From Deferrisomatales bacterium (GTDB lineage Bacteria > Desulfobacterota > Deferrisomatia > Deferrisomatales > JACRMM01): a DNA stretch of 49,712 bases. Position numbers and translations under genes: made by a program. The notes under the pieces were generated by a model that saw only the letters and a list, made by a program, of their open reading frames with translations, was not told where the DNA came from and ran no database searches. The DNA lies in the NCBI GenBank assembly GCA_033551855.1, contig JAWSUI010000029.1, positions 1 through 49,712 of the forward strand. Direction: 5' to 3'. Position 1 is the stretch's first letter; each line of letters opens with the position of its first letter. Positions 18,871 through 43,687 of this stretch are shown here, in pieces.

Positions 18871-18900
18871 GGTTTCTGATCCGTGGTCGGTTGGGGTTCG

Positions 18901-24073: not shown

Positions 24074-24721
24074 ATGTCGCTGCTGTTCACTCAGGACTGG
24101 GACGTCGTTCGCGGCAAGGAAGACGAGTACGCGGAGTTCGTGTCGGACTCGTTCATCCCCGAGTGCAACCGGCTGGGGCTGCAGTCGGTCGGCGGCTTCT
24201 ACGTGGCGGTCGGCGTCGGGCCCAAGGTCATCTCCGTCAAGAGCGCCCCCTCCCTGGCTGCTCTCACGTCCGCCATGGCGGACGAGCGCTTCCACCGCCT
24301 GAAGCAGGCACTCAAAGACTACGTGGTCAACTACAGCAGCAAGATCCTCGAGCCCACGCTCTTTCCCGAGCGAGTCGAGTACGCCATCCAGAAAGGCGTC
24401 TGGAAGTACAACGTGTACTACGACGTCAACCCCGACGGGCGCCCGCAGTACGAGGATTTCCTCCGGTCCGAGTATCTCCCCACCCTGGCCGACCTGGACT
24501 ACGTCGAGGTCACCCAGGGGTGGAACGTGCTCATCGGGGGGTTCAGCGAGGCGATCCTGGAACTCACCTTCAGTGACTCGGTGGACATCGGCCGGCTCCT
24601 CGGCAACCCCTCCTTCCGCAACGTCACCTACACCCTGTGCCGGGACCACGTGCGCAACTACAAGAGCCGGATCCTGCGGACGACGGAGCGGTTCGACGAG
24701 CCCCGCTGGTTCCGGCTGTAA
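24074..24721 (+). CDS. Hypothetical protein with two tandem alpha/beta (NIPSNAP/dimeric-barrel-like) repeats
   Basis: GGAGG RBS. Halves align: WDVVRGKEDEYAEFVSDSFIP...VVNYSSKIL vs YDVNPDGRPQYEDFLRSEYLP...VRNYKSRIL. Confidence 0.75.
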   Translation: MSLLFTQDWDVVRGKEDEYAEFVSDSFIPECNRLGLQSVGGFYVAVGVGPKVISVKSAPSLAALTSAMADERFHRLKQALKDYVVNYSSKILEPTLFPERVEYAIQKGVWKYNVYYDVNPDGRPQYEDFLRSEYLPTLADLDYVEVTQGWNVLIGGFSEAILELTFSDSVDIGRLLGNPSFRNVTYTLCRDHVRNYKSRILRTTERFDEPRWFRL

Positions 24722-24794: not shown

Positions 24795-26639
24795 ATGAGC
24801 AACAAGTTCCTGGATCCACACGACGTTCCGACCATCCCCGGGACCGAAGGCTGGGAGCGGATGTACCCCTACCACTATCAGTTCACGAAGGACGACCCCG
24901 CCCGGGCCGAGTTCGAGAGCAATCAGCTGTGGTTCTACGACGGGCTGCACTACCCGGAGCCCCACTACCCCTTCGACCTGATCTGGGACGAGGCATGGTT
25001 TCTCGCCCTGTCCCAGAACAACACCCGCACGTTCCTGGTGCCCCCGGCCCTGGGCATCGACCACCGGATCGTGAACGGCCACGTGTACATCACGCCGGTG
25101 GGCGTGCCGGACCCCGAGGAGGTGGGCCGCCGCGTGCCCATCTTCCTGAAGCGGGCGGGGTACTACTACGAGAACTGGGACAAGCTGTATGAGGACTGGA
25201 AGGTCAAGGTGGTCAAGCTCGTGAGCGAGCTCGAAGAGGTGAACTTCAAGCCTTTGCCGGAGGTCGAGGACGAGAGCATCGTCTTCGAGAACAAGGGGAT
25301 CGGGAGCGGGTACCACCTGCTCACCCAATACGACGACCTCATCCACAAGGGGCTGATGATCTGGCAGTACCACTTCGAATTCCTGAACCTCGGGTACGCC
25401 GCCTACGTCACCTTCATCAACACGGCCAACCAGATCTTCCCCGACATCCCGATCGCGACCCTCACCAAGATGGTCTCCGGGATCGACGTCGTCATGTACA
25501 AGCCGGACTCGGAGCTCATCCGGCTGGCAAAGCTCGCCATCGAGACCGACGTGGACGGCGTGCTCCTGAAGAAGCAGGACGCGGCGGACACCCTGGCCGA
25601 GTTGGCCGGGTCCAACAGCGGCAAGTACTGGGTCGATGAGCTGGAGAAGGCCCGCTACCCGTGGTTCTACATCTCCACGGGCACCGGCTGGTACCACCAC
25701 CACAAGTCGTGGAACGACGACCTGAACGTCCCCTTCGACTCGATCCGGATGCACATCCAGGCAATCCAGGCGGGCAAGACGGTGGGCCGCCCCACGGAGC
25801 GGCTCATCGAGGAGCGCGACCGCCTGATCCAGGAGTACCGCGACCTGATCACCTCGGAGGACGACCGGCAGGCCTTCGATCAGGGGCTGGCCGTGTCCCA
25901 GAGGGTCTTCCCCTACGTGGAGGACCACCTGTTCTACGTGGAGCACTGGTTCCACAGCGTCTTCTGGAACAAGGTGCGCCAGATCGCAGACATCCTGAAG
26001 GACGCGGGCTTCCTGGAGGACCGGGAGGACATCTGGTACCTCAAGCGCGGCGAGATCCGCGACGCCCTCTGGGACCACGTGACGAGCTGGGCGACCGGCA
26101 CCCGCGCCCGGGGCCCCTCCTACTGGCCCAAGGAGATCGAGTGGCGGCGCGGCGTAATGAAGAAATTCCAGGAGTGGTCCCCCCCGCCCGCCCTGGGCAC
26201 CCCGCCCGAGACCGTGACCGAGCCCTTCAGCATCGTCCTCTGGGGCGTGACCACGAGCGTGCTGAAGAACTGGCTGAAGGGCGTGGAGGCGGCCAGCGGC
26301 GTGGAGGGCCAGGAACTGGCGGGGTCCCCGGGCGCGTCGGGGATCGTCGAGGGAAAGGCGCGGGTGATCCGCGACGTGAAGGACCTCAGCCTGCTGCAGG
26401 AGGGCGAGATCCTGGTGGCCACGACGACCTCCCCCAGCTGGGCCCCGGCCTTCACCAAGATCGCCGGGTGCGTCACCGACGTCGGCGGCGCGATGTGCCA
26501 CGCGGCGATCGTCTGCCGCGAGTACGGCCTGCCGACGGTGGTCGGAACCGGGCGCGGCACCTCGGTGATCAAGACCGGGGACGTGATCCGCATCGACGGG
26601 GACCAGGGCTCGGTCACTATCGTGGAGCGCGCGGCGTGA
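24795..26639 (+). CDS. ppsA: Phenylphosphate synthase subunit A (phospho-His carrier)
   Basis: TIPGTEGWERMYPYHYQF, WQYHFEFLNLGYAAY and FYVEHWFHSVFWNK as recalled for Thauera PpsA. C-terminal mobile domain GGAMCHAAIVCREYG. Confidence 0.93.
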   Translation: MSNKFLDPHDVPTIPGTEGWERMYPYHYQFTKDDPARAEFESNQLWFYDGLHYPEPHYPFDLIWDEAWFLALSQNNTRTFLVPPALGIDHRIVNGHVYITPVGVPDPEEVGRRVPIFLKRAGYYYENWDKLYEDWKVKVVKLVSELEEVNFKPLPEVEDESIVFENKGIGSGYHLLTQYDDLIHKGLMIWQYHFEFLNLGYAAYVTFINTANQIFPDIPIATLTKMVSGIDVVMYKPDSELIRLAKLAIETDVDGVLLKKQDAADTLAELAGSNSGKYWVDELEKARYPWFYISTGTGWYHHHKSWNDDLNVPFDSIRMHIQAIQAGKTVGRPTERLIEERDRLIQEYRDLITSEDDRQAFDQGLAVSQRVFPYVEDHLFYVEHWFHSVFWNKVRQIADILKDAGFLEDREDIWYLKRGEIRDALWDHVTSWATGTRARGPSYWPKEIEWRRGVMKKFQEWSPPPALGTPPETVTEPFSIVLWGVTTSVLKNWLKGVEAASGVEGQELAGSPGASGIVEGKARVIRDVKDLSLLQEGEILVATTTSPSWAPAFTKIAGCVTDVGGAMCHAAIVCREYGLPTVVGTGRGTSVIKTGDVIRIDGDQGSVTIVERAA

Positions 26640-26643
26640 ACCG

Positions 26644-26685
26644 GTGCGGCCGGGCGCCCCGAGGGCTCGGGGCGCCCGGCCGCAC
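26644..26685. repeat. Perfect 20-bp GC hairpin between ppsA and ppsB
   Basis: GTGCGGCCGGGCGCCCCGAG-GG-CTCGGGGCGCCCGGCCGCAC, with no U-tract. Confidence 0.8.
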
Positions 26686-26747
26686 GCCTCCTTGACTCCA
26701 GCCCCCGAGAGGAACCCGTGTGTACGCAACCAGACCAAGGGACCGCC

Positions 26748-27818
26748 ATGGCCGACTCTGACAGGGAAACGAGGCTCACCTTCTGGTACGAGGAACTGAC
26801 CGGCGAGGACTTTCCCCTCGTGGGTAAGAAGAACGCGAACCTCGGCGAGATGATGAAGGCCGGGATCCGGGTGAGCCCGGGCTTCAGCCTGACCCTCCAC
26901 GCGAACGACCGGTTCATGGAGGAGACCGGGATCAAGGCGGAGCTCGCCGGGTACCTGAGCGAGCTGGGAGAAGTAACGTACGAGAACTGTGAGGCGGCGA
27001 GCCGCTTCGCGGTGGGCCTGATCGAAGAGGCCCCCATGCCGGGCGCCCTCGCCGAAGCGATCTGCCGCGAGTACGACAAGCTGTGCCGCCTGGCCCGGGT
27101 GGACGACGTGCCGGTGGCCGTGCGCTCCAGCGGCGCCGTGTCGATGCCCGGGCAGATGGAGACCTACCTGAACATCCGGGGGCACGACGACCTCCTGCGC
27201 TACACCAAGAAGACCTGGGCGAGCGCCTACCACGTGGAGGCCATCACCTACCGGATGAACAAGGGCATGCACTTCCTCCTGAACATCGGGGTGGGCGTCC
27301 CCAAGATGGTTAACTCAAGGCTCTCGGGGGTCGTCTTCACCTTGAACCCGCTCAACGGGGACCGCTCCAAGATCTCCCTCGACGTGAGCTACGGTCTGGG
27401 GGAGGCGGTGGTCAGCGGGTTGGTCACCCCGGACAACTACCTGGTGGACAAGATCACCCTGAGCGTGATCAAGCAGACGCGCGGCAGCAAGGAGGTGAAG
27501 TGCGTCTACCGCGAGGGCGGGAGCGACATCGACACCGTCTCGGTGCCCGAGGAGGACCGCAACCGCTTCTGCCTCACGAACGAGGAGCTCGTGGAGCTGT
27601 GCCGCGTCTCGAAGGCCATCGACCGGTACTACGGAATGCCCTACGACATCGAGTTCGGCATCGACGCCGACCTCCCGTTCCCGGAAAACGTGATCATCCT
27701 CCAGGTGAGGCCCGAGTCGGTGTGGTCCAAGAAGCAGGCCGAGGCGAAGACCGAAAAGAAGAAGGACGCGATGGACCGGATCGTCAGCCAGCTCGTCACG
27801 GGCGTCAAGCTGCGGTAA
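26748..27818 (+). CDS. ppsB: Phenylphosphate synthase subunit B (ATP-binding, PEP-synthase N-terminal-like)
   Basis: LVGKKNANLGEM, VAVRSS, PGQMETYLN, YGLGEAVVSG and ILQVRPESVW. Follows ppsA. Alternative GTG start at 26718. Confidence 0.9.
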   Translation: MADSDRETRLTFWYEELTGEDFPLVGKKNANLGEMMKAGIRVSPGFSLTLHANDRFMEETGIKAELAGYLSELGEVTYENCEAASRFAVGLIEEAPMPGALAEAICREYDKLCRLARVDDVPVAVRSSGAVSMPGQMETYLNIRGHDDLLRYTKKTWASAYHVEAITYRMNKGMHFLLNIGVGVPKMVNSRLSGVVFTLNPLNGDRSKISLDVSYGLGEAVVSGLVTPDNYLVDKITLSVIKQTRGSKEVKCVYREGGSDIDTVSVPEEDRNRFCLTNEELVELCRVSKAIDRYYGMPYDIEFGIDADLPFPENVIILQVRPESVWSKKQAEAKTEKKKDAMDRIVSQLVTGVKLR

Positions 27819-27940: not shown

Positions 27941-28459
27941 ATGAAGACCGACGACCTTTCCCGGCTGCTCTCGAGCCTGCCCTGCCCCGAGGTGCTGCTC
28001 TGTGTCCAGGCCGGGGACGTGAAGGATGTGGTGGCGGTGACCACCATGTGGGTCTCCTACGACCCCGTGATCGCGGCCGTCTACCTGAAGCCGGGCTCCG
28101 CGGCCCACCGACTCGTCAACGAGGGGCGCAACTTCACCCTGAACGTGGTGGACGAGGCCCACAACCGCCAGGCGCTGCTGGCAGGGTCGTTGGGGGGCGA
28201 CGACCCTGGCAAGCTCGACCGGCTGGATCTAGGCTTCCTGCCCGCGACCACCGTCCCCAGCCCTCGGATCGAAGGGGTCTCGGCGAGCTACGAGTGTCGG
28301 GTCCTCAAGGTGGCGGCCTGCGGCACCCACGACCTCTTCCTGGGGCTGGTCACCGACTTCCGGGTCGCCGAGACCGGCAAGCCGGTGATCCGATACCGGG
28401 GCGAGAGCCGAGGGCTCGGCGGCGCCCTGCCGGGTCCGGACGTGAAGTACCCACACTGA
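27941..28459 (+). CDS. Flavin reductase-like (FMN-binding split barrel) protein
   Basis: WVSYDP, FTLNVV, SPRIEG...ECRV and GTHDLFLGLV motifs. GGAGG RBS. Confidence 0.82.
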   Translation: MKTDDLSRLLSSLPCPEVLLCVQAGDVKDVVAVTTMWVSYDPVIAAVYLKPGSAAHRLVNEGRNFTLNVVDEAHNRQALLAGSLGGDDPGKLDRLDLGFLPATTVPSPRIEGVSASYECRVLKVAACGTHDLFLGLVTDFRVAETGKPVIRYRGESRGLGGALPGPDVKYPH

Positions 28460-28558
28460 GGAGGGGATCGGGACGGGGGATAACGGGATCGACGGGATGG
28501 CGACACGGATGGGGGGGTACGCGACCACAGGGACGGGGGGAGCGGAAGGACCCGGGTC

Positions 28559-29611
28559 GTGACGACCCTTCGGGGCACGGTCCAGACCGGCCGCCGCGAG
28601 GCGGCGGGCTTCCTCACCGTGCCCTGGGTTGCAGAACGACTGCGCGGGAGGTACGGGTTCGTCCCCTACCCCGGAACCCTCAACCTCAGGATCGAGACCC
28701 CGGAGGACCAGGATCGCTGGGAGGCGCTCCGTGACGGCCCGGGGTGGTGGATCCTCCTGCCCGAAGCGGTGGAGTTCTGCGACGCCGCCTGCCTCCCGGT
28801 GTTGGTCCAGGGGAAGGCCCGCGGGGTGATCGTCGTCCCGGACGTTCCCGGCTACCCGCGGGACCTCGTGGAAGTCGTGGCTCCGGAGAACCTCCGAGAG
28901 CGCCTGGGGCTGCGCGACGGAGACCCCTGCCTCTTGGAGGCGCCCCCGGCCCCTTTCTTTTCCTGCGTGCTCTTCGACCTGGAGGGCACCCTCGTCGACT
29001 TCCAGTGGAAGCTGGCAGAGGCCGAGGAGGAGCTCCGGGACGCGGCAGCCGACCTCGGCTACGACCGCAGGGGATTCGCCTCCGACAACTACGCCGGCAT
29101 CCTCCACCGGGCCCTGGACCTCGCGGCTTCGCCAACGGCGCGGGAGGACGTGGCCCGGCGCCTCGGGCCGATCTACGACCGCTATGACCTGGACGCCCTC
29201 TCCCGGTGGAGTCCCAGGCCGGACGCCGCGGAGTTGCTGGCGGACCTCCGGGCCCGCGGGGTGTCGTTGGGCCTGGTCACCAACATCGGGCGCCGGGCGG
29301 CCGAGGGCGCCCTGGACCGTTTCGGCCTCCGACCGCTGCTGGGCGCGCGGATCACGCGCAACGACGTGACGCGCCTCAAGCCCGACGGCGAAGGGATCCG
29401 CAAGGCCCTGCGGGGATTGGGGTGCGGGGGCAGGGCCCTTATGGTGGGGGACAGCCTCTCCGACCTCTACGCCGCACGGGAAGCGGGCCTCCCGGTGGCG
29501 ATCGTATCCGGCGGAGAGTGCTCCGAGCAAACGATCCGGGCCCACGGCCCCGATCACCTCCTCGCTTCCCTCTCGGAGGTGCTGACGGTGGTGTGTCCCG
29601 AGACCGCCTGA
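28559..29611 (+). CDS. Fusion: archaeal-type CTP-dependent riboflavin kinase (N) + HAD phosphatase (C)
   Basis: GTVQTG, GFVPYPGTLNL and EVVAPENLRERLGLRDGD (MJ0056/RibK-type), then FDLEGTLVD, VTN, LKP and GDSLSD HAD motifs in one ORF. Confidence 0.8.
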   Translation: MTTLRGTVQTGRREAAGFLTVPWVAERLRGRYGFVPYPGTLNLRIETPEDQDRWEALRDGPGWWILLPEAVEFCDAACLPVLVQGKARGVIVVPDVPGYPRDLVEVVAPENLRERLGLRDGDPCLLEAPPAPFFSCVLFDLEGTLVDFQWKLAEAEEELRDAAADLGYDRRGFASDNYAGILHRALDLAASPTAREDVARRLGPIYDRYDLDALSRWSPRPDAAELLADLRARGVSLGLVTNIGRRAAEGALDRFGLRPLLGARITRNDVTRLKPDGEGIRKALRGLGCGGRALMVGDSLSDLYAAREAGLPVAIVSGGECSEQTIRAHGPDHLLASLSEVLTVVCPETA

Positions 29612-29739: not shown

Positions 29740-30030
29740 TCACGGGAAGCGGGAGCGAAATCTCTCGACGGCCTCGTGCAACTCCTTCCACGCCTTGTCT
29801 GCGCCGGTTCGGAGCTCCTGCCACGCCCCCTCGGCAGAGCTCCCGATCCTCGACAGTTTGTCCTGCGCTTCCGCGCGCTTGGTGCGGAGCTCCCCGAGCA
29901 GGCGCTCGTACTCCCCGCGCCTCTCGGCCTGGATCTCCCGGACGCGACCCCCCAACCGGTCGATCGCCGCATTCCACTCGTCGAGCTTGGCCTTCAACCG
30001 CTCCACGTAGGCGTCTCGTGTCTCCTTCAT
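29740..30030 (-). CDS. Small coiled-coil protein (Sll1863-like stress protein)
   Basis: RDAYVERLKAKLDEWNA...AWQELRTGADKAWKEL pattern. AAGGAG RBS. Confidence 0.75.
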   Translation of the reverse strand: MKETRDAYVERLKAKLDEWNAAIDRLGGRVREIQAERRGEYERLLGELRTKRAEAQDKLSRIGSSAEGAWQELRTGADKAWKELHEAVERFRSRFP

Positions 30031-30294
30031 CTCATGTCTCCTTCGGCTCGTCGCTCCCACGGGCTCTATAAAGAAGGTTCATCCGGGAAATGACCGGGTA
30101 CTCGTGTCCAGGGACGACCGGGTGGGCCCGGCCACGCAGGCGGACGGCCGCTCGACGGGAGCAGCCGTTTCGGGAGCCGCGATGCCGCGAGGATTCCGAA
30201 TGCGGCGCGGGAGCCCATCTACCATACAGCCCGGCATCGTCTGCCGGAGGGGGCGGGCCCACCCGGTCGTTTACTGGAAGAACCACAAAGAAAC

Positions 30295-30948
30295 TCAGTA
30301 GTCGATCCCCGGCTGCGGCTCGATGTCCTTCCGGTAGGCATGCTTCACCTCCCGGACCTCGCTCACGGTGTCGGCCCTGTCGATCACCTCGGGGTGGGCA
30401 TCCCTCCCGGTGAGGACCAGGTGGAGGAGGGGGGGCTTGCGGTCCAGAAGCTCCAGGACCTGCACCAGGTCGAGCAGCTTGAGGTGCAGGGCGTTGTTGA
30501 TCTCGTCCAAGATGAGGAGGTCGACGGTGCCGGAGCCGATCTTCTCACGAACGATGGCCAGGGCCTCCTGGGCGTTGGCGCGGTGCTCCCTCCAGGGGTA
30601 CGGGTTGCCCTGGATCCCACAGAACCCCTTTCCCGTCGCGATGAGCTCGATGGCGCAGCCCATCCGCTTCACCCCGTCCCACTCCCCGGCGTAGAGATCG
30701 CCCTTCATGAATTGCACGATGCAGACCCGCATCCCATGACCGCAGGCCCTCACGGCCATCCCCAGGGCAGAGGTGGTCTTCCCCTTGCCGTTGCCCGTGA
30801 CGACCACCACCAGGCCCCTGCGCTCCTTGGGCTCGAGACGCTGGATCACCGGGGGCGGCCCCGGAACCCCCTCCGGGACGCCCGGCGCCGGGGCCTCCAG
30901 CTCGCAGGACGCGCCGTCCGCCTCGCGGTCCGGATCCGTCACGTTCAC
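30295..30948 (-). CDS. cobO: Cob(I)yrinic acid a,c-diamide adenosyltransferase (CobA/CobO/BtuR)
   Basis: TGNGKGKTTSALG, QFMKG, LILDEI, LTGRDA and KHAY...GIDY motifs. Confidence 0.92.
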   Translation of the reverse strand: MNVTDPDREADGASCELEAPAPGVPEGVPGPPPVIQRLEPKERRGLVVVVTGNGKGKTTSALGMAVRACGHGMRVCIVQFMKGDLYAGEWDGVKRMGCAIELIATGKGFCGIQGNPYPWREHRANAQEALAIVREKIGSGTVDLLILDEINNALHLKLLDLVQVLELLDRKPPLLHLVLTGRDAHPEVIDRADTVSEVREVKHAYRKDIEPQPGIDY

Positions 30949-31460
30949 GGCGTCAACCGCAAGACCGCGCAGGCGATCCTGCCCCCGGAGGCGCCGGCCG
31001 GGTCGGTCCGGTGGTCGTCGGGCCCTTCGTGGAGGACCATCGAGGCGCCATCGCCATCCAGGATCGGGAAAGGCCCCCCCGTCAGCGCGACCCCCGGAGC
31101 GAACAGCTCCGCGCGGAGCGCCCCATCGGGCCCCACGAAGACGTTCGGCAGGTCCCCCAGGTGGGAACCCTCCGGGTGAAGCAGGCCGTGTTTCCTTCCC
31201 GTTGGATTGTAGTGCCCACCTGCCGAGGCGAAGGGCGGCTCACAGGCGCCCACCTCGTGGATGTGGAAACCGTGGGGCCCGGGGGGAAGCCCGGCGGCGG
31301 TCACGGCGATCAGGACTCCCCCAGGGCCCTCGGCGGCGGTGATTTTCCCCAAGACCCTTCCGTCCGACCCCACCAGCTCCCCCTGGGCGAGGGCGGCCTG
31401 GGAAGAGGCGGCCCAGACCAGGCAGCCTACCCCAAAGGCCGTCGCGGCGAAGCGTCTCAT
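30945..31460 (-). CDS. sodC: Periplasmic Cu/Zn superoxide dismutase
   Basis: Signal peptide, HGFHIHE, AGGHYNP, HLGDLPN, LHEGPDD and RIACAV. ATG overlaps the upstream TGA. Confidence 0.92.
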   Translation of the reverse strand: MRRFAATAFGVGCLVWAASSQAALAQGELVGSDGRVLGKITAAEGPGGVLIAVTAAGLPPGPHGFHIHEVGACEPPFASAGGHYNPTGRKHGLLHPEGSHLGDLPNVFVGPDGALRAELFAPGVALTGGPFPILDGDGASMVLHEGPDDHRTDPAGASGGRIACAVLRLTP

Positions 31461-32077
31461 CCGTGCCTCCTTTCGGCCCACCGGCCGCCGGCGACGAAGC
31501 GGGCCAGATCCTCGTACGGAACGAAACCCGTGAGCAACCGGCCGTCGAACCCATGGGTCGGGACGGCGGAAACCCCCAGCCGGCGGGCCCGGCCCCAGTC
31601 CTCGTCCACGGGTCGGGCCCACCGCCCTGCAGCGAGGACATCCAAAGCCTCGTCGGGGGGAAGACCGGCCACGCGGCAGACCTCCGCGAGCTCCTCGGGG
31701 CGCGCGATGTTGCGCCCATCAGCGAAGTACGCCCGAAACACCCTCTCCCGAAAGGCATCGCCGACGCCCCGCGCCTCGGCCCACTTGGCCAACTCCTGGG
31801 CCCGGCGCGTGTTGAAGGTGCGCCGGCGCTCTCCCAGCGGGACACCGACGTGGGCCGCCACCCGGCGCAGTCGGGCGAGCACGGCGTCCACGTCGACCCC
31901 GCGGCCAGCAAAGAGCTCCTCCAGGTCGAGCCCCTCCTCGGGGGTCTCGGGGTGCAGAGGAAAACCCGTCCAGCGCACGGGGATTCCGGTCTCGACCTGT
32001 AGCCTCGCGACACCGACCGTGTCGAAGTAGCACCAGGGTCAGGCGAAATCGTAGAAGAGCTCGAGTCCCTGTCTCAC
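31457..32077 (-). CDS. DsbA/FrnE-family oxidoreductase, selenoprotein (UxxC)
   Basis: GTG 32077 reads MRQGLELFYDFA-TGA(32041-32039)-PWCYF in frame with WTGFPLHPETP...GVSAVPT. SECIS-like hairpin follows. Confidence 0.85.
32008..32024 (-). promoter_or_regulatory. Putative bacterial SECIS element
   Basis: CGACAC-GGTCG-GTGTCG stem-loop. The loop G lies 21 nt downstream of the in-frame UGA. Confidence 0.7.
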
Positions 32078-32080
32078 CGC

Positions 32081-32269
32081 CTACCCCGCCTCCCCGCGGG
32101 CCGTCAGGAGGTCCTTCGCCTCCCGGAGCCACCGGATCAGGTCGTCGATCTGGTCCGCGTGCACCTGGATGCGCTGGGAGTGCCCCTGGAACGGGAGTCT
32201 CTGGTCCAAGTACAGGACCGGGTCGACCCGGTCGGTGGTGAGCTCGATCTCGAAGACCTTCTTGTGCAT
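32081..32269 (-). CDS. Small hypothetical protein
   Basis: 62 aa, normal codon pattern, ends 3 nt before the selenoprotein start. Confidence 0.6.
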   Translation of the reverse strand: MHKKVFEIELTTDRVDPVLYLDQRLPFQGHSQRIQVHADQIDDLIRWLREAKDLLTARGEAG

Positions 32270-32369
32270 GGCCGCGCTTCGCCCCGTCCCCCGCCCTAGA
32301 TGATCGGTTCCACAGTACCGCGGGGCACCGGGCCGTCAAACCCCGGGCCGGCAGACCTGGACGGAGAGC

Positions 32370-33218
32370 TCAAGCGACCTCGGACAGCCAGGACCGAACC
32401 GTCTCGACCTGCCTCTCCTCGAGCAGCGCCGGGGCGTGGCCGACCCCGGGCAACTCGACCACCCGGGCCCGAGGGCCCCGGCGCGCCATCTCTTCGGCGG
32501 TCTCCCGGGTCAGGAGGTCCGACTCGGCGCCCCGCAGGACGAGGACCGGGCACCGAACGGCGTCCCACACGGTCCACAGGTCCACGTCCTCCAGGGAACT
32601 CGCCCGGAAGGCCGCACCGATGCCGGGGTCGTAGTGCAAGGCCAGGGTCCCGTCCGGGAGCCCGCGGGCGCTGTGCTTCGCCAGGTGCTGCCACTGCTCG
32701 CCTGTTAGGGGCCCGAAGGGAGCATGGACCTCGCGCAGATACCCCTCGAGCCCCCGGAAATCCGCAAATCGCGGGTCTGCCCCCACGTACTCCCCGATGC
32801 GCCGGAGGGACTTCTTCGGGAGGAAGGGGCCCACATCGTTGAGGACGAGGCGCCGAAGGGGCGTGCCCGGTTGGGCGGCCAGCATCATGCCGAGGAGCCC
32901 TCCCAGGGAGGTGCCCACCCAGTCCACGGCCGTCCCGTCCAGTCGCGCCAGGAGGGCGACCATGTCCGACAGGTATACCGGGTAAGCGTAGCCGGCCGGG
33001 TGTGGCAGCCACTCACTCTGCCCGCGGCCCGGCAGGTCCGGGCACGCCACCCGGAAGAGGCCTGCGAGGGCCGAGGCCAGGACGTCGAAGTCCCGACCGT
33101 TTCGCGTGAGCCCGTGGACACACACCACCACCCGGGGATTCGCCGGATCACCCCACTCGTGGTAGGCAACCCGGTGGAAACCGTGGGGCCCCAGCCCCAG
33201 CAACGATCTCGTCACCAT
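32370..33218 (-). CDS. Alpha/beta-fold hydrolase
   Basis: CVHGLTRNGRDFD, GTSLGG nucleophile elbow and GVGHAP. Confidence 0.9.
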   Translation of the reverse strand: MVTRSLLGLGPHGFHRVAYHEWGDPANPRVVVCVHGLTRNGRDFDVLASALAGLFRVACPDLPGRGQSEWLPHPAGYAYPVYLSDMVALLARLDGTAVDWVGTSLGGLLGMMLAAQPGTPLRRLVLNDVGPFLPKKSLRRIGEYVGADPRFADFRGLEGYLREVHAPFGPLTGEQWQHLAKHSARGLPDGTLALHYDPGIGAAFRASSLEDVDLWTVWDAVRCPVLVLRGAESDLLTRETAEEMARRGPRARVVELPGVGHAPALLEERQVETVRSWLSEVA

Positions 33219-33257
33219 GGACCCGCCTCCCTTTCTCGCCTCCCCTCGTGGCTTGCC

Positions 33258-33695: not shown

Positions 33696-34134
33696 AGCAC
33701 CCTCCTTTGCGGTCGCCGCCGCAGGCGGCTGCCCAGCATCCCGTGCGCAACCCCGAGCACCCGCCGGAGCACCGCCGGCAACTCTGCGCCCCCGGCCCAG
33801 TGCCGGCTCAGGGCCCCGGGGGGAGACGCGTCGATGAGGCCTTGAAGGGCGTGGAGGCCAGCGCCACGTCGTCCAGGTATCCGATCGGTCCGAAGAGGGC
33901 CTCGGGGACGAGGTCGATCGGCGAGATGAAGTACGCGAGGGCCAACGCGAGCCTCACCTTCGCCCCGCGGGGCACCTCGGGGTCGGCCGACAGCCGGCAG
34001 AGCACGTGGATGAGATCGGCGGGGAGGAAAACGAGCTCGACCCAAGGCCCAAAGCGCCCTCCTGCGGTCCGGGCCCCATCCCGGATCCGTTGCCGCGCCC
34101 TCTGGTAGCGGTCTGCCTCGCTGTCGCGCCCCAA
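33692..34134 (-). pseudogene. YkvA/DUF1232-family protein with a frameshift near 33856
   Basis: YFISPIDLVPE..FGPIGYLDD in one frame. The natural continuation HALQGLID...RHWAG is in another frame and ends at a TGA overlapping the TM2 TTG start. Confidence 0.7.
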
Positions 34135-36953: not shown

Positions 36954-38366
36954 ATGGATCTTCGAGAGTTCATCGCACTGTGCGAGAAGGACGGCGACCT
37001 GAAGCGGGTGACCGCGGAGGTCGACTGGGATCTGGAGATGTCGCACATCGCCAAGCTCGTGGAGGAGAAGAGCGGCCCCTCCCTTCTCTTCGAGAGAGTC
37101 AAGGGAAGCACCGGGCGGGTGATGTTCGGCGCCTTCAGCAACACCAAGCGGTTCGCGAAGATCCTCGGGAAACCCAGCCACCTCTCCATGTGCGACCTGA
37201 GCTACGAGTGGATGCGGCTCTCGGTCGGCGAGGTGATCCGCGCGCGGGAGGTCGAATCCGGCCCGGTCTTCGAGAACATCCTCGAAGGCGACGCCGTGGA
37301 CGTGACGAAGCTGCCGGCACCAAAGTTCTACGAGAAGGACGGGGGGCGCTTCATCGGCACGGCGTGCTTCATGGTGGTCGAAGACCCGGAAACGGGGGAG
37401 ATCAATCTGGGGACCTACCGGAGCCAGGTCCTCGACGCCAAGACCGTGGGGGCCCAGATCCTCAAGGGCAAGCGGGGCGACCGCATCCTCCAGAAGTACC
37501 GGAAGGCCGGGAAGAAGATGCCGATCTGCATGGTGGTGGGCTGCGACCCCCTGCTGATGCTCGCGGGGAGCGCCATGGTGGAGGGGGCCAACGAGTACGA
37601 CGTGGTGGGCACTCTCCGGGGCGAACCGGTGGACGTGGTGAAGGCCCCGCTTACGGGCCTGCCGATCCCGGCCACCGCCGAGATCGTCCTCGAGGGGTAC
37701 GTGGACGGGGACAACCTGCGGCCCGAGGGGCCCTTCGGGGAGTACACCGGCTACTACACCGAGGAGATCTACAAGCAAGTCCTCAAGCCCGCCATCGAGG
37801 TGGAGCGGATCTACCACCGGGACGACCCGATCCTGCTGGCTGCGTCCGTTGGGCGCCCGGTGAACGACAACCACATGATGCTCGCCTTCGTGCGCAACGC
37901 CACCTTGTGGACCGAGCTCACGAAAATGAAGATCCCGGGGATCCAGTCCGTGTACATGCCGCCCGAGGCTTGCGGCCGCTTCTGGGCCATCGTCTCCGTC
38001 AAGCAGATGTACCCGGGCCACTCCGATCAGGTGGCCGCCGCGGTCATCGCGTCCAACACGTGCACGTACGGCCTCAAGGGACTGATCGTCGTCGACCACG
38101 ACATCCAGGCGGACGACCTGCCCCGGGTGTGGTGGGCGCTCGCCACCCGGTACGACCCCCAGCGGGGCACCCAACTCATCCATCGCGGCCGGTCCACGCC
38201 TCTGGACCCGGCCCTCTTCCACAACGACAACAAGTTCATCACCTCCCGGATCGTTTTGGACGCGACCCTTCCCTTCGAGTGGAAAGAGAAACCGGTCCAG
38301 GTGGAGATGTCGCAGGAGGTTCTGGAGCGGGTGAAAGCCCGGTGGGGGGAGTTCGGGCTCGAGTGA
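36954..38366 (+). CDS. ppcB: Phenylphosphate carboxylase beta subunit (UbiD family)
   Basis: MDLREFI..EVDWDLEMSH, NLGTYR, EGPFGEYTGYY, ATLWTEL and RGRSTPLDP match recalled Thauera PpcB. Confidence 0.9.
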   Translation: MDLREFIALCEKDGDLKRVTAEVDWDLEMSHIAKLVEEKSGPSLLFERVKGSTGRVMFGAFSNTKRFAKILGKPSHLSMCDLSYEWMRLSVGEVIRAREVESGPVFENILEGDAVDVTKLPAPKFYEKDGGRFIGTACFMVVEDPETGEINLGTYRSQVLDAKTVGAQILKGKRGDRILQKYRKAGKKMPICMVVGCDPLLMLAGSAMVEGANEYDVVGTLRGEPVDVVKAPLTGLPIPATAEIVLEGYVDGDNLRPEGPFGEYTGYYTEEIYKQVLKPAIEVERIYHRDDPILLAASVGRPVNDNHMMLAFVRNATLWTELTKMKIPGIQSVYMPPEACGRFWAIVSVKQMYPGHSDQVAAAVIASNTCTYGLKGLIVVDHDIQADDLPRVWWALATRYDPQRGTQLIHRGRSTPLDPALFHNDNKFITSRIVLDATLPFEWKEKPVQVEMSQEVLERVKARWGEFGLE

Positions 38367-38602: not shown

Positions 38603-39145
38603 ATGGCCTACGACATGATGGATGCGATCGAGCGAGCCAAGAAGGTCAAGCTGGTGGTGCTGGACGTGCACGGGGTGCTCACCAGCGGCAGGGTCCTGTA
38701 CAGCGAGGACGGGGTGAAGTTCCAGGTCTTCGCCCACGACGACGGATTCGGGGCCAACTGCCTCATGATGCTCGGCGTCGAGGTGGCCCTGATGACCCGC
38801 AAGTCGAAGATCGTCGAGATCCGGGCCGCAGAGGTCGGCATCAAACGCGTGCTCCAGGCCAAGGACAAGACCACCAAGCTCCAGGAGGTGGCCCAGGAGA
38901 TGGGCCTGGCTCTCGACGAGATCTGCTTCGTGGGGGACGAGATCATCGACCTGGGGGCGATGCGCACCGTGGGGTTCGCGGTCTCCCCCGCGAACGGCGT
39001 TCCCGAGGTGAGGGAGGCATCCCACTTCGTGACCCAGCGGGCCGGGGGTGAGGGGGTACTGCGCGAGCTCGGCGAGTTCATCCTGCGGGCCCAGGGCAAG
39101 TGGCAGGGCCTCGTGGACAAGGTGTCAAGCAAGGGGTGGGGGTAA
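38603..39145 (+). CDS. ppcD: Phenylphosphate carboxylase delta subunit (KdsC-like HAD)
   Basis: AKKVKLVVLDVHGVLT, CFVGDEIID and GGEGVLRE..ILRAQGKW. Lies between ppcB and ppcA. Confidence 0.85.
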   Translation: MAYDMMDAIERAKKVKLVVLDVHGVLTSGRVLYSEDGVKFQVFAHDDGFGANCLMMLGVEVALMTRKSKIVEIRAAEVGIKRVLQAKDKTTKLQEVAQEMGLALDEICFVGDEIIDLGAMRTVGFAVSPANGVPEVREASHFVTQRAGGEGVLRELGEFILRAQGKWQGLVDKVSSKGWG

Positions 39146-39345: not shown

Positions 39346-40794
39346 ATGGCGCACAAGTACTACAAGGACAACCGCGAGTTCATCAAGGCCCTGGAGGCCT
39401 CGGGGGATCTGGTCACGGTCCGCCAGGAGGTGGACTGGGACATGGAGATGGGCGCCATCGTGCGCCGCGTGTGCGAGAAGCAGGGGCCCTCCCCCTACTT
39501 CAAGAAGATCAAGGATTACCCCGGGTTCGAGGCCTTCGGCGCACCGCTGGCCACCTACCGGAAGCTCGCGATCTCGCTGGGCCTGCCGCCGGAGACGCCG
39601 ATCCCCGAGATCGCCCAGGTCTACCTGGACCGCACCGATCGGGGCGCCCCCCACAAGCCGGTGGTCGTGGACCGCGACCGGGCCCCCTGCAAGGAGAATG
39701 TGATCACCGGCGACGCGGTGAACCTGTTCGACCTTCCCGCCCCCATGGTCCACGCCGGCGACGGCGGCCGCTACCTCTCGACCTGGCACATGATCGTGGC
39801 CGAAGACCCCGACACCCGCGCCATCAACTGGGGCATGTACCGGCAGATGGTGTTCGACGAAAAGACCATGGTCGGCCCCGTCCTGCCGTTCTCGGACATG
39901 GGCAAGATGTTTTGGAACAAGGCCGTGCCGCGCAACCAGCCGATGCCCTTCGCCACCGTGATCGGCATGGACCCCCTCGCGGGAATCGCGGCCTGCGCCC
40001 CCGCCCAGATCCCGGAGGACGAGTTTTGCGGGATGCTCATGGGCGAAGGGGTGGAGATGGTCAAGTGCGAGCTCAGCGACCTCCACGTGCCGGCCCACGC
40101 CGAGATCATCATCGAGGGGGACATCCTCCCGAATGTCGCGCTCGAGGAGGCCCCCTTCGGGGAGTACACGGGATACCGCACCTCGCCGCGGGAGCCCCGC
40201 ACGGTGTACCGGGTTCGGGCCATCACCTACCGGAACAACCCGATCATGCCGATTTCGTGCATGGGCGTGCCCACGGACGAGGGGCAGTTGCTGCGCTCGT
40301 TCTCCCTGGGTCTGGAGATGGACAAGCTGCTCCGCAGCCAGGGCATCCCGATCACGGGGGTCTTCATGTGGCCCGAGTCGACCCACCACTTGGTGGTGGT
40401 CGGCACACGGCACGCCTACGCAGGCATCGCCAGCCAGATCGCCCAGTTGATCTTCGGCAGCAAGCTCGGGCCCTGGTTCCACATGGCCGTGGTGGTGGAC
40501 GAGGACACCGACATCTACGACAAGGACAAGGTCATCCACGCCCTGACGACGAAGTGCCACCCCGTCGACGGCATTCACGTGTACAAGAACTCGGCCGGGA
40601 CGCCTCTCTACCCCTTCGCACCCATGCACGAACGCAAGTTCGGGAAGGGGTCGAAGGTTCTGTTCGACTGTCTCACGCCTCTCGATTGGAAGAAGTCAGA
40701 TATCCCGATCCTTGTATCCTTCGACAAGGTCTACCCGGAAGACGTAAAGGCAAAGGTCCTGGCCAACTGGGCCAATTACGGGTTCAAGGACTGA
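39346..40794 (+). CDS. ppcA: Phenylphosphate carboxylase alpha subunit (UbiD family)
   Basis: DNREFI, NWGMYRQM, EEAPFGEYTGYR, DEGQLLRSFSLGLE and FGSKLGPWFHM match recalled Thauera PpcA. Confidence 0.9.
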   Translation: MAHKYYKDNREFIKALEASGDLVTVRQEVDWDMEMGAIVRRVCEKQGPSPYFKKIKDYPGFEAFGAPLATYRKLAISLGLPPETPIPEIAQVYLDRTDRGAPHKPVVVDRDRAPCKENVITGDAVNLFDLPAPMVHAGDGGRYLSTWHMIVAEDPDTRAINWGMYRQMVFDEKTMVGPVLPFSDMGKMFWNKAVPRNQPMPFATVIGMDPLAGIAACAPAQIPEDEFCGMLMGEGVEMVKCELSDLHVPAHAEIIIEGDILPNVALEEAPFGEYTGYRTSPREPRTVYRVRAITYRNNPIMPISCMGVPTDEGQLLRSFSLGLEMDKLLRSQGIPITGVFMWPESTHHLVVVGTRHAYAGIASQIAQLIFGSKLGPWFHMAVVVDEDTDIYDKDKVIHALTTKCHPVDGIHVYKNSAGTPLYPFAPMHERKFGKGSKVLFDCLTPLDWKKSDIPILVSFDKVYPEDVKAKVLANWANYGFKD

Positions 40795-40882: not shown

Positions 40883-41140
40883 ATGAAAGAGTACGACACC
40901 TTCATCCTGACCGACCTCCAGGAGGCCGTCCTAGACGTGGAGCAGGAGATGACGATCCGGGACCTGACGCCCGGGCGCGCCAAGTACTGCTGCCGTTGCG
41001 TACGAGCCAAGATCTCCGATCAGCCCGACAAGTACCCCGACCGCCTGTGGCCCCTTCTCGGCCGCGGCCAGTGGGTCGGAAAGCCGTGGTCCATCCAGGT
41101 CGTCTCCTTCCTGGACAAGATCCCCGAGGACTGGAGATAG
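40883..41140 (+). CDS. ppcC: Phenylphosphate carboxylase gamma subunit
   Basis: 85 aa. IRDLTPGRAKY...VRA...DKYPDRL..LGRGQ...SI resembles the recalled Thauera gamma subunit. AGGAG RBS. Confidence 0.85.
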   Translation: MKEYDTFILTDLQEAVLDVEQEMTIRDLTPGRAKYCCRCVRAKISDQPDKYPDRLWPLLGRGQWVGKPWSIQVVSFLDKIPEDWR

Positions 41141-41144: not shown

Positions 41145-42512
41145 GTGGCCTTCGCCGACCTGCGGGAGACGGTAGCTGCGCTGCGGGTGAAGGGCCGCCT
41201 CCTGGAGATCGCGGAACCCGTCTCCCCCGTCCACGAGGCAGCCGCGGTGCTGGCCGCGGCGGGCCGACTCGGGAGGGGGGCGGTCCTCCTCTCCCGGGTC
41301 GGAGACCATCGGGTGCCGGTGGTGGGCAACGTGGTCTACGGCCGGGAGGTGTTGGCCTGGGCCATGGACGTCGAGGAATCCGACCTGCCCGGAGAGCTCG
41401 GCCGGCGCTTGACCCAGCCCATCCCCCCGGGGACCGTCGGGCCCGGAGCAGTCGCGCCGGTGCTCGAATGCCGGGGGGCCGACGACGCTTCCCTGGAGAG
41501 GCTCCTGCCCCTCCTCACCCACTGCGCAGAGGACTCCGGGCCCTTCCTCACCACCGGTCTCGTCTCGGCCCGGGACCCGGAGACCGGCGAGGCGGCCCGC
41601 GGGATCCACCGGATGGAGCTCCGCGGCACGCGGGAACTGGGTGTGGCCCTTGTCAACCCGCCCCTGTCCCACCTGTATGCGCGTTTCAAGGCCCGCGGAG
41701 AGCCGATGCCGGCCGCCGTTGCCGTGGGGGTGGACCCGCTCACGTTCGCCTGCTTCGCCCTGCGGGGGGCGCCGGGGGTCGACAAGCTCGCGGTGGCCGG
41801 GGGGCTCCGGGGGAGGGCCGTGGAGGTGGTCGAGGCCCCCCTGGCAGGCGTCCCGGTGCCGGCCCGGGCGGAGTTCCTCCTGGAGGGGGAGGTGGACCCG
41901 TCGGACGAGCGCCCCGACGGGCCACTGGGGGAGGTCGGTGGGTATTCCCTGGTCTTTCCCGCCACACCCACCTTCCGGGTGCGAAGGGTCAGCCACCGGC
42001 GCTCGCCCCTCTACCACGCGCTCCACCCGACGGGGCCCGAAGGAGACCTGCTGCTGGCCCTCGTTTCCGAGGCCAACACGGCTCCTCGGGTGCGGGGCCT
42101 CTTTCCCTTCGCGCGGGATTTCCACTACGTGCCCGGCAGCATCGGGCTCTCTCTCGTCGTGCGGCTGGAACCGGCGCCCCGAGAGCAGATCCGGAGCCTT
42201 CTGCTGCAGCTCCTCACCCTCGGGGTGGTCAAGAAAGTGGTGGCCGTGGCCGAGGACGTGGACCCGGGGGACCCGGGGCGCGTGGAGTGGTCGGTCGCCA
42301 CCCGGTGCCAGCCGGACCGGGACATCCTCGTGGTGAGCGACCTCAAGGCCCTACCCATCGACCCTTCTTGCGCCGAGCCCTTTCGCACCTCGAAACTGGC
42401 GGTCGACGCCACCGGCTACGAGCGCCTGGGCGGCCGAAGGCCGGCCCGGGTCCAGCCCGAAGCGCTCGCGAAGGCCTACACCCTGCTCTCCGGGAGGCAC
42501 CCCCATGGCTAG
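41145..42512 (+). CDS. Additional UbiD-family (de)carboxylase
   Basis: GIHRM, VPARAEFLLEG, DGPLGEVGGY, VAEDVD...WSVATRCQPDRD and IDPS..TSKLAVDAT. Confidence 0.85.
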   Translation: MAFADLRETVAALRVKGRLLEIAEPVSPVHEAAAVLAAAGRLGRGAVLLSRVGDHRVPVVGNVVYGREVLAWAMDVEESDLPGELGRRLTQPIPPGTVGPGAVAPVLECRGADDASLERLLPLLTHCAEDSGPFLTTGLVSARDPETGEAARGIHRMELRGTRELGVALVNPPLSHLYARFKARGEPMPAAVAVGVDPLTFACFALRGAPGVDKLAVAGGLRGRAVEVVEAPLAGVPVPARAEFLLEGEVDPSDERPDGPLGEVGGYSLVFPATPTFRVRRVSHRRSPLYHALHPTGPEGDLLLALVSEANTAPRVRGLFPFARDFHYVPGSIGLSLVVRLEPAPREQIRSLLLQLLTLGVVKKVVAVAEDVDPGDPGRVEWSVATRCQPDRDILVVSDLKALPIDPSCAEPFRTSKLAVDATGYERLGGRRPARVQPEALAKAYTLLSGRHPHG

Positions 42513-43107
42513 GAAGCGCATCGTCGTCGGCATCTCCGGCGCCACGGGTCCCCAATACGGCATCCGCCTGCTCCAGGTCCTCGCGGAGCTCGAGGTGGAG
42601 ACGCACCTGGTGCTCTCCCACGCGAGCCGGAGAAACATTGCCCTGGAGAGCGACTGGGATGCAGAAGACGTGGAGCGCCTCGCCTTCCGCTCCTACGATG
42701 TGGACGACGTGGGAGCGGCCGTCGCCAGCGGGTCGTTTCTGACGGACGGGATGGTCATCGCCCCCTGCTCGGTCAAGACGGTCTCTGCCGTCGCGAACTC
42801 CTACAACGAAAACCTGCTCGTCCGGGCGGCGGACGTGACCCTCAAGGAGCGGCGGGACCTGGTCCTGCTGTTCCGGGAGACGCCCCTGCACAAGGGCCAC
42901 CTGGACCTGCTGCGCCGCTGCGCGGACCTGGGGGCCGTGATCCTGCCCCCCATGGTCGCCTTCTACCACCGGCCCCGAACCGTGGAGGAGATCGTGGACC
43001 AGACGGTGGGAAAGGTTCTGGACGCGCTCCGGATCGAGCACCACCTGTTCCGGCGCTGGAAGGGAGGGGAGCTCGCGGTGGTCGGGGGAGAACGGTCCCG
43101 GGGGTGA
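42505..43107 (+). CDS. ubiX: Flavin prenyltransferase
   Basis: GISGATG, ASGSF, APCS, RAADVTLKERR, RETP and FYHRP. Confidence 0.95.
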   Translation: MARKRIVVGISGATGPQYGIRLLQVLAELEVETHLVLSHASRRNIALESDWDAEDVERLAFRSYDVDDVGAAVASGSFLTDGMVIAPCSVKTVSAVANSYNENLLVRAADVTLKERRDLVLLFRETPLHKGHLDLLRRCADLGAVILPPMVAFYHRPRTVEEIVDQTVGKVLDALRIEHHLFRRWKGGELAVVGGERSRG

Positions 43108-43138: not shown

Positions 43139-43687
43139 ATGATCTACCTGGGGGGGCGCGCCTCCCGCGAGGGGTGGGTGAGCTTCGAGACCGACCCGCT
43201 CCTGCGGCGGACCAAAGAGGGTCTGCACGAGAACTGCCTCCCCTGCCTCACCGGGCTGCTGGAACAGCTTCGCGCGGGGGCCGAGCGGGTGGATCTCGGC
43301 CCGGCGTGGGAGTGCTGGAAGGTGGTGGCACTCACCCCGACCCGGGAAGACGCCCTGGGGCTTCTCGAGCGGTTCTCCCAGGCCCATCCGGACGAGGAGG
43401 TCCGGGGCAAGGTGGGCGGGGGACGGGACGACCGCCCCACCTGGGCGGTGATCTTCCACACGCGGAGCGAGGCGCGCCGGGACCGACTCCTGGAGCTCGT
43501 GCGGGATCTCTCCCGCCGGCGGCCCCCCGACATCCCGACCTTCTGCTCTCGAGGGTGCGGGATCCCCTACGAGGAGCTCTTGGGCCCGTGGCAGGGCTGG
43601 GAGCCGGTCAGCCCGATCCGGCACCCGGAGAGACGGGCGCGGGTCGTCGCCTCCCTCCGGGAAAGCCTGTACGGCGCGGCGCGGTGA
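43139..43687 (+). CDS. Hypothetical Cys-containing protein
   Basis: GGAG RBS, CLPC and CSRGC motifs. Last gene of the ppc/ubiX run. Confidence 0.7.
   Translation: MIYLGGRASREGWVSFETDPLLRRTKEGLHENCLPCLTGLLEQLRAGAERVDLGPAWECWKVVALTPTREDALGLLERFSQAHPDEEVRGKVGGGRDDRPTWAVIFHTRSEARRDRLLELVRDLSRRRPPDIPTFCSRGCGIPYEELLGPWQGWEPVSPIRHPERRARVVASLRESLYGAAR

Follow-up and report, generated by a model that had tools for sequence, protein, structure and literature searches.

The window analysed here, a contig of 49,712 nucleotides (JAWSUI010000029.1) from a Deferrisomatales bacterium, contains an anaerobic phenol island in which two genes follow the phenylphosphate synthase gene ppsB. One encodes a split-barrel flavin protein; the other is a single open reading frame (ORF) that fuses an archaeal-type riboflavin-kinase domain (PF01982) to a phosphatase domain of the haloacid dehalogenase (HAD) class whose motif I reads DxE. 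The analysis reveals a real, conserved accessory unit of anaerobic phenol clusters, apparently undescribed and built from known families; every domain of the locus belongs to one, and no new chemistry is shown. By homology and gene context the kinase half is well tied to prenylated flavin mononucleotide (prFMN), and the HAD half tracks ppcB, the gene for the beta subunit of phenylphosphate carboxylase, independently of the kinase. We tentatively read the whole as flavin mononucleotide (FMN) supply plus a phenol-pathway phosphatase, the two genes making up an accessory tail to the operon for phenylphosphate synthase. A preliminary description of the locus had proposed a module for prFMN supply; its link between the kinase and UbiX/UbiD is supported here, whereas its supply of dimethylallyl monophosphate (DMAP), its fixed reductase and its plant-like pairing of kinase and phosphatase are weakened.

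Supply and maturation of prFMN concern the anaerobic UbiD carboxylases of phenol, benzene and naphthalene, many of which resist reconstitution, and the locus names candidate helpers: an archaeal-type kinase kept by ubiX, an exchangeable reductase/maturase slot and a DxE HAD clade of the phenol pathway. In agreement with the preliminary description, which knew of no such module in phenol clusters, a full-text literature search found no paper joining riboflavin kinase, UbiX and phenylphosphate, none joining CTP-dependent riboflavin kinase and UbiD, and none joining riboflavin kinase and prFMN, in a search that covered subscription literature thinly and so does not establish absence from print. 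Broader searches, judged by titles and term counts, gave nothing on such a unit either. A term search of the main text of two D. anilini papers (including PMC6114531) gave no hit for riboflavin, and the D. anilini proteome table (supplement of PMC7500099) has no rows for riboflavin, haloacid, phosphoglycolate phosphatase or isopentenyl.

A kinase-phosphatase fusion beside ppsB

The ppsA/ppsB-like genes occupy 24795-27818, with the ppc operon further 3'. The pps operon and its tail comprise the following features, the name ppsA being one that we infer from context.

24795..26639, + strand: ppsA-like phenylphosphate synthase subunit with a phospho-His domain (PF00391; NF006152 at 910 bits, over cut-off)
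26748..27818, + strand: ppsB-like phenylphosphate synthase subunit, ATP-binding (PF01326, E 3e-89)
27941..28459, + strand: flavin-reductase/flavoredoxin-like split barrel of 172 amino acids (PF01613 Flavin_Reduct, E 6e-19, 69 bits against a cut-off of 27)
28559..28945, + strand: archaeal-type (PF01982) riboflavin-kinase domain of the fusion (T40, N42, E105, P94 and F18 kept; W23/C74; G-R-R-E-A loop)
28955..29611, + strand: C1-cap HAD domain of the fusion (D140-x-E142, T241/N242, K274, D298/D302)

A flavin-reductase-like gene and a kinase-HAD single ORF 3' of ppsB on the same strand, as first described, were confirmed at these coordinates. The spacing is 122 bp from ppsB to the split-barrel gene and 99 bp from there to the fusion ORF, all on the + strand, and a purine-rich stretch resembling a ribosome-binding site precedes both genes. 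Their GC content at third codon positions is 0.89-0.91 (0.95 for ppsB and 0.92 for ppcB). The first gene 3' of the fusion lies on the opposite strand, and a promoter and terminator scan gave nothing above chance.

The fusion (28559..29611) is one frame of 350 amino acids with PF01982 (CTP-dep_RFKase) at residues 8-123 (E 2e-23, 83 bits against a cut-off of 25) and PF00702/PF13419 HAD at residues 136-316. Motif I is D140-L-E142-G-T (codons at 28976 and 28982), and thus DxE rather than DxD as first noted; both acidic residues are invariant in 41/41 fused rows and 79/79 HAD rows (the window's HAD and 78 homologues), which come from a protein search without the motif as seed, so that a sequencing slip at this point can be dismissed. 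DxE also recurs in 27/27 loci from a profile search of genomes; the locus scans of the genome collection and of metagenomes used the motif as seed and do not count as independent evidence of its conservation.

The protein search returned 216 matches; among the 120 listed, 41 have both domains (one being the window's own cluster) and the others the HAD only, which places the fusion in 40 other protein clusters. Named fused relatives are mainly Deferrisomatales and other deltaproteobacterial metagenome-assembled genomes. The genome collection gave 270 loci, of which 80 were kept. The single-frame fusion occurs in 8 of these 80 (L001-L007, L010), and ppsB is present in seven of the eight, the last being a 2.25-kb contig; the fusion is therefore a phenol-cluster gene. 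Kinase and HAD are split, adjacent genes in L028, L050 and L299, and the contig of L032 is error-ridden. Of the 12 candidate loci checked, nine have the single frame, two are split and one lies on an error-ridden contig, which ruled out a frameshift or chance fusion. A metagenome scan with the fusion alignment gave mainly stand-alone HADs. The AlphaFold2 model of the fusion (pLDDT 92.5, pTM 0.88) matches the archaeal riboflavin kinase MJ0056 (Foldseek, 2VBU; E 3.4e-9, TM by target 0.79, rmsd 2.9) and also C1 HADs, the top one being AlnB (Z 24.5, with other rows close at 23-24).

The kinase domain and prenylated flavin

Archaeal RibK (MJ0056; 2VBS-2VBV, 2P3M) and the kinase domain of RbkR (3CTA/5TRD) share both the family and the fold of the fusion's kinase (TM 0.77-0.79), and the T-x-N motif, catalytic Glu, Pro and L-R motif of RibK align with it. 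T40, N42, E105, P94 and F18 correspond to MJ0056 and are invariant in 41/41 fused and 51/51 wider rows, and the L-R pair is nearly so (L112 in 38/41 and R113 in 39/41 fused rows); as in MJ0056, T-x-N presumably holds Mg, the Glu is catalytic and L-R contacts the nucleotide. Unlike its archaeal counterparts the fusion is bacterial, stands beside an intact RibF, lacks an N-terminal helix-turn-helix, is joined to a HAD and has W23/C74 and an altered glycine loop. The W23/C74 pair is a signature of the bacterial clade, in which Cys74 is invariant and Trp23 near-invariant; both are found in 105 of 149 representatives scored (13 unplaceable by motif search), and we take the positions next to them to line the flavin pocket in MJ0056. 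The window's genome has one PF01982 match and, on another contig, an ordinary RibF-type kinase (PF01687), so that the fusion kinase represents an extra, pathway-linked copy.

The UbiX and three UbiD clients named in the preliminary description are all in the window, but in a separate ppc operon, 7.3-13.5 kb downstream behind a divergent LysR gene.

36954..38366, + strand: ppcB, phenylphosphate carboxylase beta (UbiD), a prFMN client (TIGR02724 at 665 bits against 469)
38603..39145, + strand: delta-like, KdsC-type HAD subunit of the carboxylase, a phosphatase distinct from the fusion (TIGR02726 at 136 bits, under the cut-off of 282; TIGR01670 over cut-off)
39346..40794, + strand: ppcA, carboxylase alpha (UbiD; TIGR02723 at 706 bits against 565)
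40883..41140, + strand: gamma-like small subunit (PF09662)
41145..42512, + strand: third UbiD-family gene (PF01977, PF20695, PF20696)
42505..43107, + strand: ubiX, the sole copy found in the genome, with Gln166 at the site that discriminates dimethylallyl diphosphate (DMAPP) from DMAP (NF004685 and TIGR00421 over cut-off)
43139..43687, + strand: gene for a 182-residue helical (TPR-like) protein without a family, directly 3' of ubiX

PF01982 genes were scored for a ubiX or ubiD gene no more than 1.5 kb away in two samples of 301 genomes each, the first from the family of Ca. Desulfobacillus (genome G001, locus L080), which we take to be Rhodocyclaceae, and the second from the window's phylum. 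Enrichment near these genes had been set beforehand as the point on which the proposed module would stand or fall, and it proved strong: 23 of 27 kinases in the first sample and 16 of 30 in the second, against 28 of 7687 windows (0.4%) in the window's own genome. The 23 genomes with a ubi-adjacent kinase are exactly the 23 of the first sample with a high-scoring ppcB, a Nudix gene follows the kinase in 20 of the 27 loci, and the other four kinases are kinase-DxD-HAD fusions with no ubi gene nearby. Counting pps genes as well raises the second sample to 21/30 and leaves 9/30 by none.

In the mechanism that we favour, the PF01982 domain would make free FMN available to UbiX by phosphorylating riboflavin, possibly in its reduced form and probably at the expense of CTP. 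This would bypass RibF, which itself converts FMN further to flavin adenine dinucleotide. Homology and context make this role of the kinase a likely one. Several features weigh against it. The glycine loop reads G-R-R-E-A in the window and G-x-G-E-G in MJ0056; its second Gly is kept in only 3/41 fused rows (39/51 in the wider set) and is Arg in 31/41. The position of MJ0056 Tyr27 is Val, the domain scores far below the archaeal equivalog cut-offs (47 against 168 bits for NF040694, 55 against 279 for NF010762), and no PF01982 was seen in 32 of the 53 ppcB genomes of the window's phylum, which speaks against a universal role of the kinase. The Gly-to-Arg change and these 32 genomes, together with the split adjacent forms (L028, L050, L299) and the presence of RibF, would suit a kinase-like domain that merely binds or carries flavin or prFMN without phosphorylating it, or a fusion that is an accident of unrelated neighbours. 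Nevertheless, no fused row departs from T40, N42 and E105, L112/R113 are almost as constant, and the loop Arg also occurs in 9/51 wider rows, including stand-alone genes adjacent to ubiX; we regard a binding-only domain or an accident as very improbable.

The fusions of other PF01982 proteins bear on both halves of the gene. A profile search of 50%-identity representatives gave 2157 such proteins, and the 50 longer ones among the best 150 were scanned. The kinase is joined to a HAD in 27 (HAD first in 9), to a PNPOx/YhbP-like barrel in 4, once each to IDI-2, an MFS transporter and a glyoxalase, and once each to a Nudix, an HD, a His-phosphatase and a low-molecular-weight (LMW) phosphatase domain, with nothing recognised in 12; these are fusions to five phosphatase folds. 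The kinase tree is too weakly resolved for counting fusion origins. The natural IDI-2-kinase fusion (P0187, TIGR02151 over cut-off) is matched by neighbouring kinase and IDI-2 genes in L152, L155, L160, L161, L163 and L164, and since flavin kinase, IDI-2 and flavin prenyltransferase travel together they point to prFMN supply; part of the kinase/IDI-2 link arises because IDI-2 itself requires FMN.

Two further groups of kinase fusions were observed. Kinase-DxD-HAD fusions in L147-L150 lie far from ubi genes, two by an MFS transporter and two by hemerythrin, and these, like the MFS-kinase fusion P0183, may serve riboflavin uptake and salvage. A HAD-then-kinase fusion, in plant-like order, occurs at L159:8704-9738 in a cluster with six UbiD genes and a ParA/MinD ATPase, which presumably resembles the hydrocarbon carboxylase clusters.

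The DxE phosphatase and its candidate substrates

The nucleophile D140, S/T241 of motif II, K274 of motif III and the motif IV pair D298 and D302 are present in 41/41 fused rows, with Glu in place of the second Asp of DxD, and the cap carries an invariant aromatic and acidic set (F148, W150, Y178, Y206, D210, D212, R216, W217, R267). Twenty-one DxE rows form one clade (support 99/89, the bootstrap not being fully settled) apart from 35 other kinase-linked HADs, which are DxD where the motif is readable (two candidates without a readable motif were excluded). Inactivity of the HAD because of DxE was considered and is unlikely, as the remaining motifs and the specific cap are invariant. A possible parallel for DxE is enolase-phosphatase E1, on which a literature search found no paper. 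A site without the second Asp is suited to substrates with a good leaving group, and an alkyl phosphate normally needs this residue as general acid.

Presence of the family follows ppcB. Among the 301 genomes of the first sample the DxE HAD turned up in nine, every one of them belonging to the 33 with ppcB, and none of the 268 ppcB-negative ones gave a match. In the second sample it turned up in 27 of 301 genomes, of which 24 belong to the 53 with ppcB. When 49 genomes without ppcB at the HAD locus were searched, 39 had ppcB elsewhere (37 over cut-off) and two more had ppsA. The ppcB genomes show no association between HAD and kinase (12/12/9/20 and 6/3/18/6), and most DxE HAD loci have no kinase. 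The DxE HAD thus tracks ppcB independently of the kinase, which weakens the earlier analogy to a plant-like pair of kinase and FMN hydrolase. It is also dispensable, since 18 single-beta clusters examined, from genomes without the family, lack a HAD gene of this kind. An obligatory role as stand-in for delta in single-beta clusters was ruled out (18 without such a gene, one with a distant other HAD, three with a metallophosphoesterase 3' of ubiX).

We propose that, within the Pps/Ppc pathway, the DxE HAD could be an older and dispensable phosphatase, later fused to its operon neighbour. Its likeliest substrate would be an aryl phosphate, for example phenylphosphate analogues that Ppc cannot carboxylate, or a carboxylated phospho-product, in the manner of HpeD, the HAD that, in the available text of PMC9618137, removes an aryl phosphate in the Pps-homologous Hpe pathway. 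HpeD and Ppc delta are likewise HAD phosphatases that work after a Pps-type phenol kinase on aryl phosphates; HpeD, however, is NagD-like and delta KdsC-like, whereas the window's HAD belongs to the C1-cap DxE clade and is not matched by the KdsC-type TIGR02726/TIGR01670 (best 25 of 27 families). Here it occurs alongside delta, and the 18 single-beta clusters lack it, so that it is not an obligatory subunit. Weighing against an aryl phosphate are the delta-type phosphatase already in the window, the repeated fusions of the kinase to HADs and other phosphatases, and the 8/49 genomes (of unstated completeness) with the DxE HAD in which neither ppcB nor ppsA was seen; the tallies moreover count related genomes, which are not independent tests, and therefore overstate independence. 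The neighbours of the HAD point the same way. Among 140 non-redundant loci, a cofactor gene lies within 1.1 kb in 44 and a pps/ppc structural gene in 25 (both in 10, neither in 81), and the HADs lean to cofactor genes. An aryl phosphate leads narrowly, as a tentative choice, since the gene and ppcB are retained together even where they are unlinked, DxE suits a good leaving group and HpeD acts likewise. A flavin phosphate is a close second because of the neighbour tally and the repeated phosphatase fusions, although we still consider it rather unlikely; DMAPP or pyrophosphate (PPi), and equally some other substrate, appear improbable. Of the alternative substrates in the preliminary description, phenylphosphate has accordingly become the leading guess.

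If the HAD does act on flavin phosphates, kinase and HAD could work as a pair, the HAD stripping N5-prenyl-FMN, over-oxidised prFMN or FMN and the kinase re-phosphorylating riboflavin or prenyl-riboflavin, in a salvage or quality control of prFMN. The fusion of the bacterial kinase clade to five unrelated phosphatase folds, to PNPOx/YhbP-like barrels (4/50) and to an MFS transporter favours such a pair, as do Cys74 and Trp23 near the presumed flavin pocket and the stand-alone DxE HADs that flank ubiX, LpdD-like PF21758 genes and PNPOx-like genes. AlnB, the top structural match of the HAD, acts on the ribosyl-phosphate of an aromatic quinone. Plants also combine the two activities: a riboflavin kinase/FMN hydrolase fusion, reportedly described by Sandoval and Roje in 2005, is like the window's in uniting flavin kinase and HAD phosphatase on a single polypeptide. 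The HAD leads in the plant enzyme, however, and the kinase in the window's fusion; the latter moreover uses a kinase unrelated to the plant one, as first claimed (PF01982, with no PF01687 match on the fusion), has the DxE motif, and its HAD tracks ppcB. With HAD and kinase unassociated within ppcB genomes, the other kinase-linked HADs being DxD and outside the DxE clade, the second Asp normally required for alkyl phosphates, and several kinase-DxD-HAD fusions far from any ubi gene (L147-L150, L157), we judge this salvage pair unlikely. More speculative still is that the W/C-signature PF01982 clade consists of prenyl-riboflavin (or reduced-flavin) kinases, which with interchangeable phosphatases (the DxE HAD here; DxD HAD, HD, Nudix, His- and LMW-phosphatases elsewhere) and PhdC/LpdD-like proteins would run an undescribed cycle of prFMN salvage, repair or trafficking. 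Such a cycle, if true, would keep anaerobic UbiD carboxylases loaded without oxygen.

The preliminary description also suggested that the HAD might hydrolyse DMAPP to DMAP, such that the operon tail would give FMN, reduced FMN (FMNH2) and DMAP to UbiX; in a variant considered here, the substrate would be PPi from UbiX or from coenzyme A (CoA) ligases. In favour of this, IDI-2 lies directly 5' of the DxE HAD in the phenol cluster L008 (TIGR02151, 328 bits against 281), IDI-2, kinase and DxD HAD stand in a row in L152, and a phosphohydrolase (Nudix, HD, HAD or metallophosphoesterase) is often 3' of ubiX. PpaX is among the best family matches of the HAD, though far under cut-off (70 against 218 bits), and the invariant R267 could bind a second phosphate. 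Against it, IDI-2 is 3' of ubiX without such a phosphatase beside it in L297, L163 and L164, Nudix and DxE HAD occur together in L016, L034, L039, L045, L068, L078, L227 and L233, and the first sample's 268 ppcB-negative genomes yielded no member of the HAD family, although these bacteria need UbiX for ubiquinone.

The UbiX sequences speak most directly to the prenyl donor. In the available text of PMC6541611, Phe181 of the DMAP-specific P. aeruginosa UbiX blocks the beta-phosphate, A. niger UbiX with Gln203 needs DMAPP, E. coli O157 UbiX with His164 accepts both, and donor choice does not depend on this site alone. Gln166 of the window's UbiX aligns to the Phe181/Gln203/His164 position. Across all stored loci the 66 readable matches (which include duplicates; two further matches did not cover the site) gave Gln in 53, His in 13 and Phe in none, so that a DMAPP-to-DMAP phosphatase is probably unneeded. 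UbiX enzymes of phenol clusters are predicted to take DMAPP, and the window's UbiX probably joins FMNH2 directly to it, which would tell experimenters which prenyl donor to choose. The DMAPP could come from IDI-2 in related clusters; no IDI-2 over cut-off was found in the window's genome. A candidate route to the monophosphate is provided by the E. coli Nudix hydrolases NudB/F/I/J, of a different fold from the HAD, which make DMAP from DMAPP in vitro (cited in the available text of PMC12359138). DMAP supply by the HAD is therefore weakened to an unlikely proposal, and the operon tail as a whole built around it is an improbable one.

Other phosphatase and partner genes recur in these clusters. 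A metallophosphoesterase (PF00149) lies 3' of ubiX or at the tail of the phenol cluster in L281, L283, L284, L227, L073, L080, L091 and L093, DUF2390 is often found between ubiX and the HAD, and two tandem delta-like HAD genes occur in the ppc clusters L161, L164, L251, L297 and L298. PF21758 (proteasome-assembly-chaperone-like) stands by ubiX or the DxE HAD in anaerobic phenol clusters L182, L185, L186, L165, L183, L184, L193, L195, L288, L296 and L298. UPF0261 (PF06792/PF23189) is regularly 3' of ppcB in single-beta clusters without alpha, gamma and delta (L053:837-2123, L011, L013, L034 and others); it is a possible missing carboxylase partner of those clusters, and in D. anilini a UPF0261 protein shows higher abundance on phenol (proteome table, supplement of PMC7500099).

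The split-barrel slot and neighbouring genes

The PF01613 barrel is one of 44 proteins in a tight family whose nearest relatives are flavoredoxin-like FMN-binding proteins, with PH0856 FMN-binding protein as its best PDB match (E 8e-20). S39-Y-D-P, G128 and H130 are invariant in 27 rows, the G-D-H-type motif having Thr for Asp in the window's copy, and the protein falls outside the characterised equivalogs HpaC, RutF, StyB and HsaB (27-34 bits against cut-offs of 200-255). It is found in 4 of 41 genomes probed, each time within a pps/ppc cluster and in two of them between ppcB and delta. Relatives lie between ppcB and delta in L272 and L273 and 3' of ppsB in L006 and L275, and consecutive locus tags of one named record also set it beside a fusion.

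The preliminary description took the flavin reductase as a fixed member of the module, which the eight single-frame fusion loci do not bear out: one has the PF01613 barrel (L006), five have a PNPOx-like barrel, two have neither and none has both. A model of the PNPOx-like partner (e.g. L003:7585-8034) superposes on PhdC with Z 12.0-12.8 over 132-136 residues (rmsd 3.0-3.5), the C-terminal helix included, although its best structural match is the uncharacterised 2Q9K (Z 18); its consensus has Y-E-W and an invariant late Glu. PhdC itself has a catalytic Glu pair and an E-x-W motif. Profile comparison found no similarity between the PF01613 barrel family and the PhdC-like family, so the slot is filled by non-orthologues. 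A strict either-or is weakened by a PhdC-like PNPOx gene elsewhere in the window's genome (G000:C6:31565-32008; L277:7563-8009), which by eye adjoins a nitroreductase-looking gene.

The locus resembles systems in which small flavin-handling genes stand beside ubiX/ubiD, namely PhdC/YclD, described as a prFMN maturase in the available text of PMC13040415, and LpdD, a prFMNH2 chaperone in that of PMC10865409; no kinase is named in the available parts of these two papers. The usual neighbour of the fusion folds like PhdC, and the PF21758 genes by stand-alone DxE HADs are of the LpdD fold class, whereas the window's barrel is of the HpaC/flavoredoxin type. The barrel, exchangeable with the PhdC-like one, would handle the redox state of the flavin, either reducing FMN for UbiX or serving as acceptor or carrier in prFMN maturation, a role that is, on balance, slightly the better guess.

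Two conserved genes without a family flank these operons. The 182-residue TPR-like protein, to which Pfam, NCBIfam and ESM Atlas gave no family, recurs by ubiX, kinase or IDI-2 in 11 other loci (L002, L007, L010, L118, L119, L125, L132, L155, L161, L162, L164) and is a candidate additional prFMN or Ppc assembly factor. The second precedes ppsA.

24074..24721, + strand: conserved gene for 215 amino acids, no family assigned (no Pfam/NCBIfam match; homologues 5' of ppsA in L002, L003, L007, L008 and L032)

No CBS-type ppsC gene was seen in the window's pps cluster. Between the pps and ppc operons lie about 7 kb of unrelated genes (29740-35683; cobO, Cu/Zn SOD, DsbA-like and others), unlike L005, L007 and L050, in which the two operons adjoin. 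Upstream of the pps operon, 9870-20552 holds two tandem molybdenum hydroxylase sets (hcr-like), two CoA ligases and a pyrimidine-nucleotidase-like HAD.

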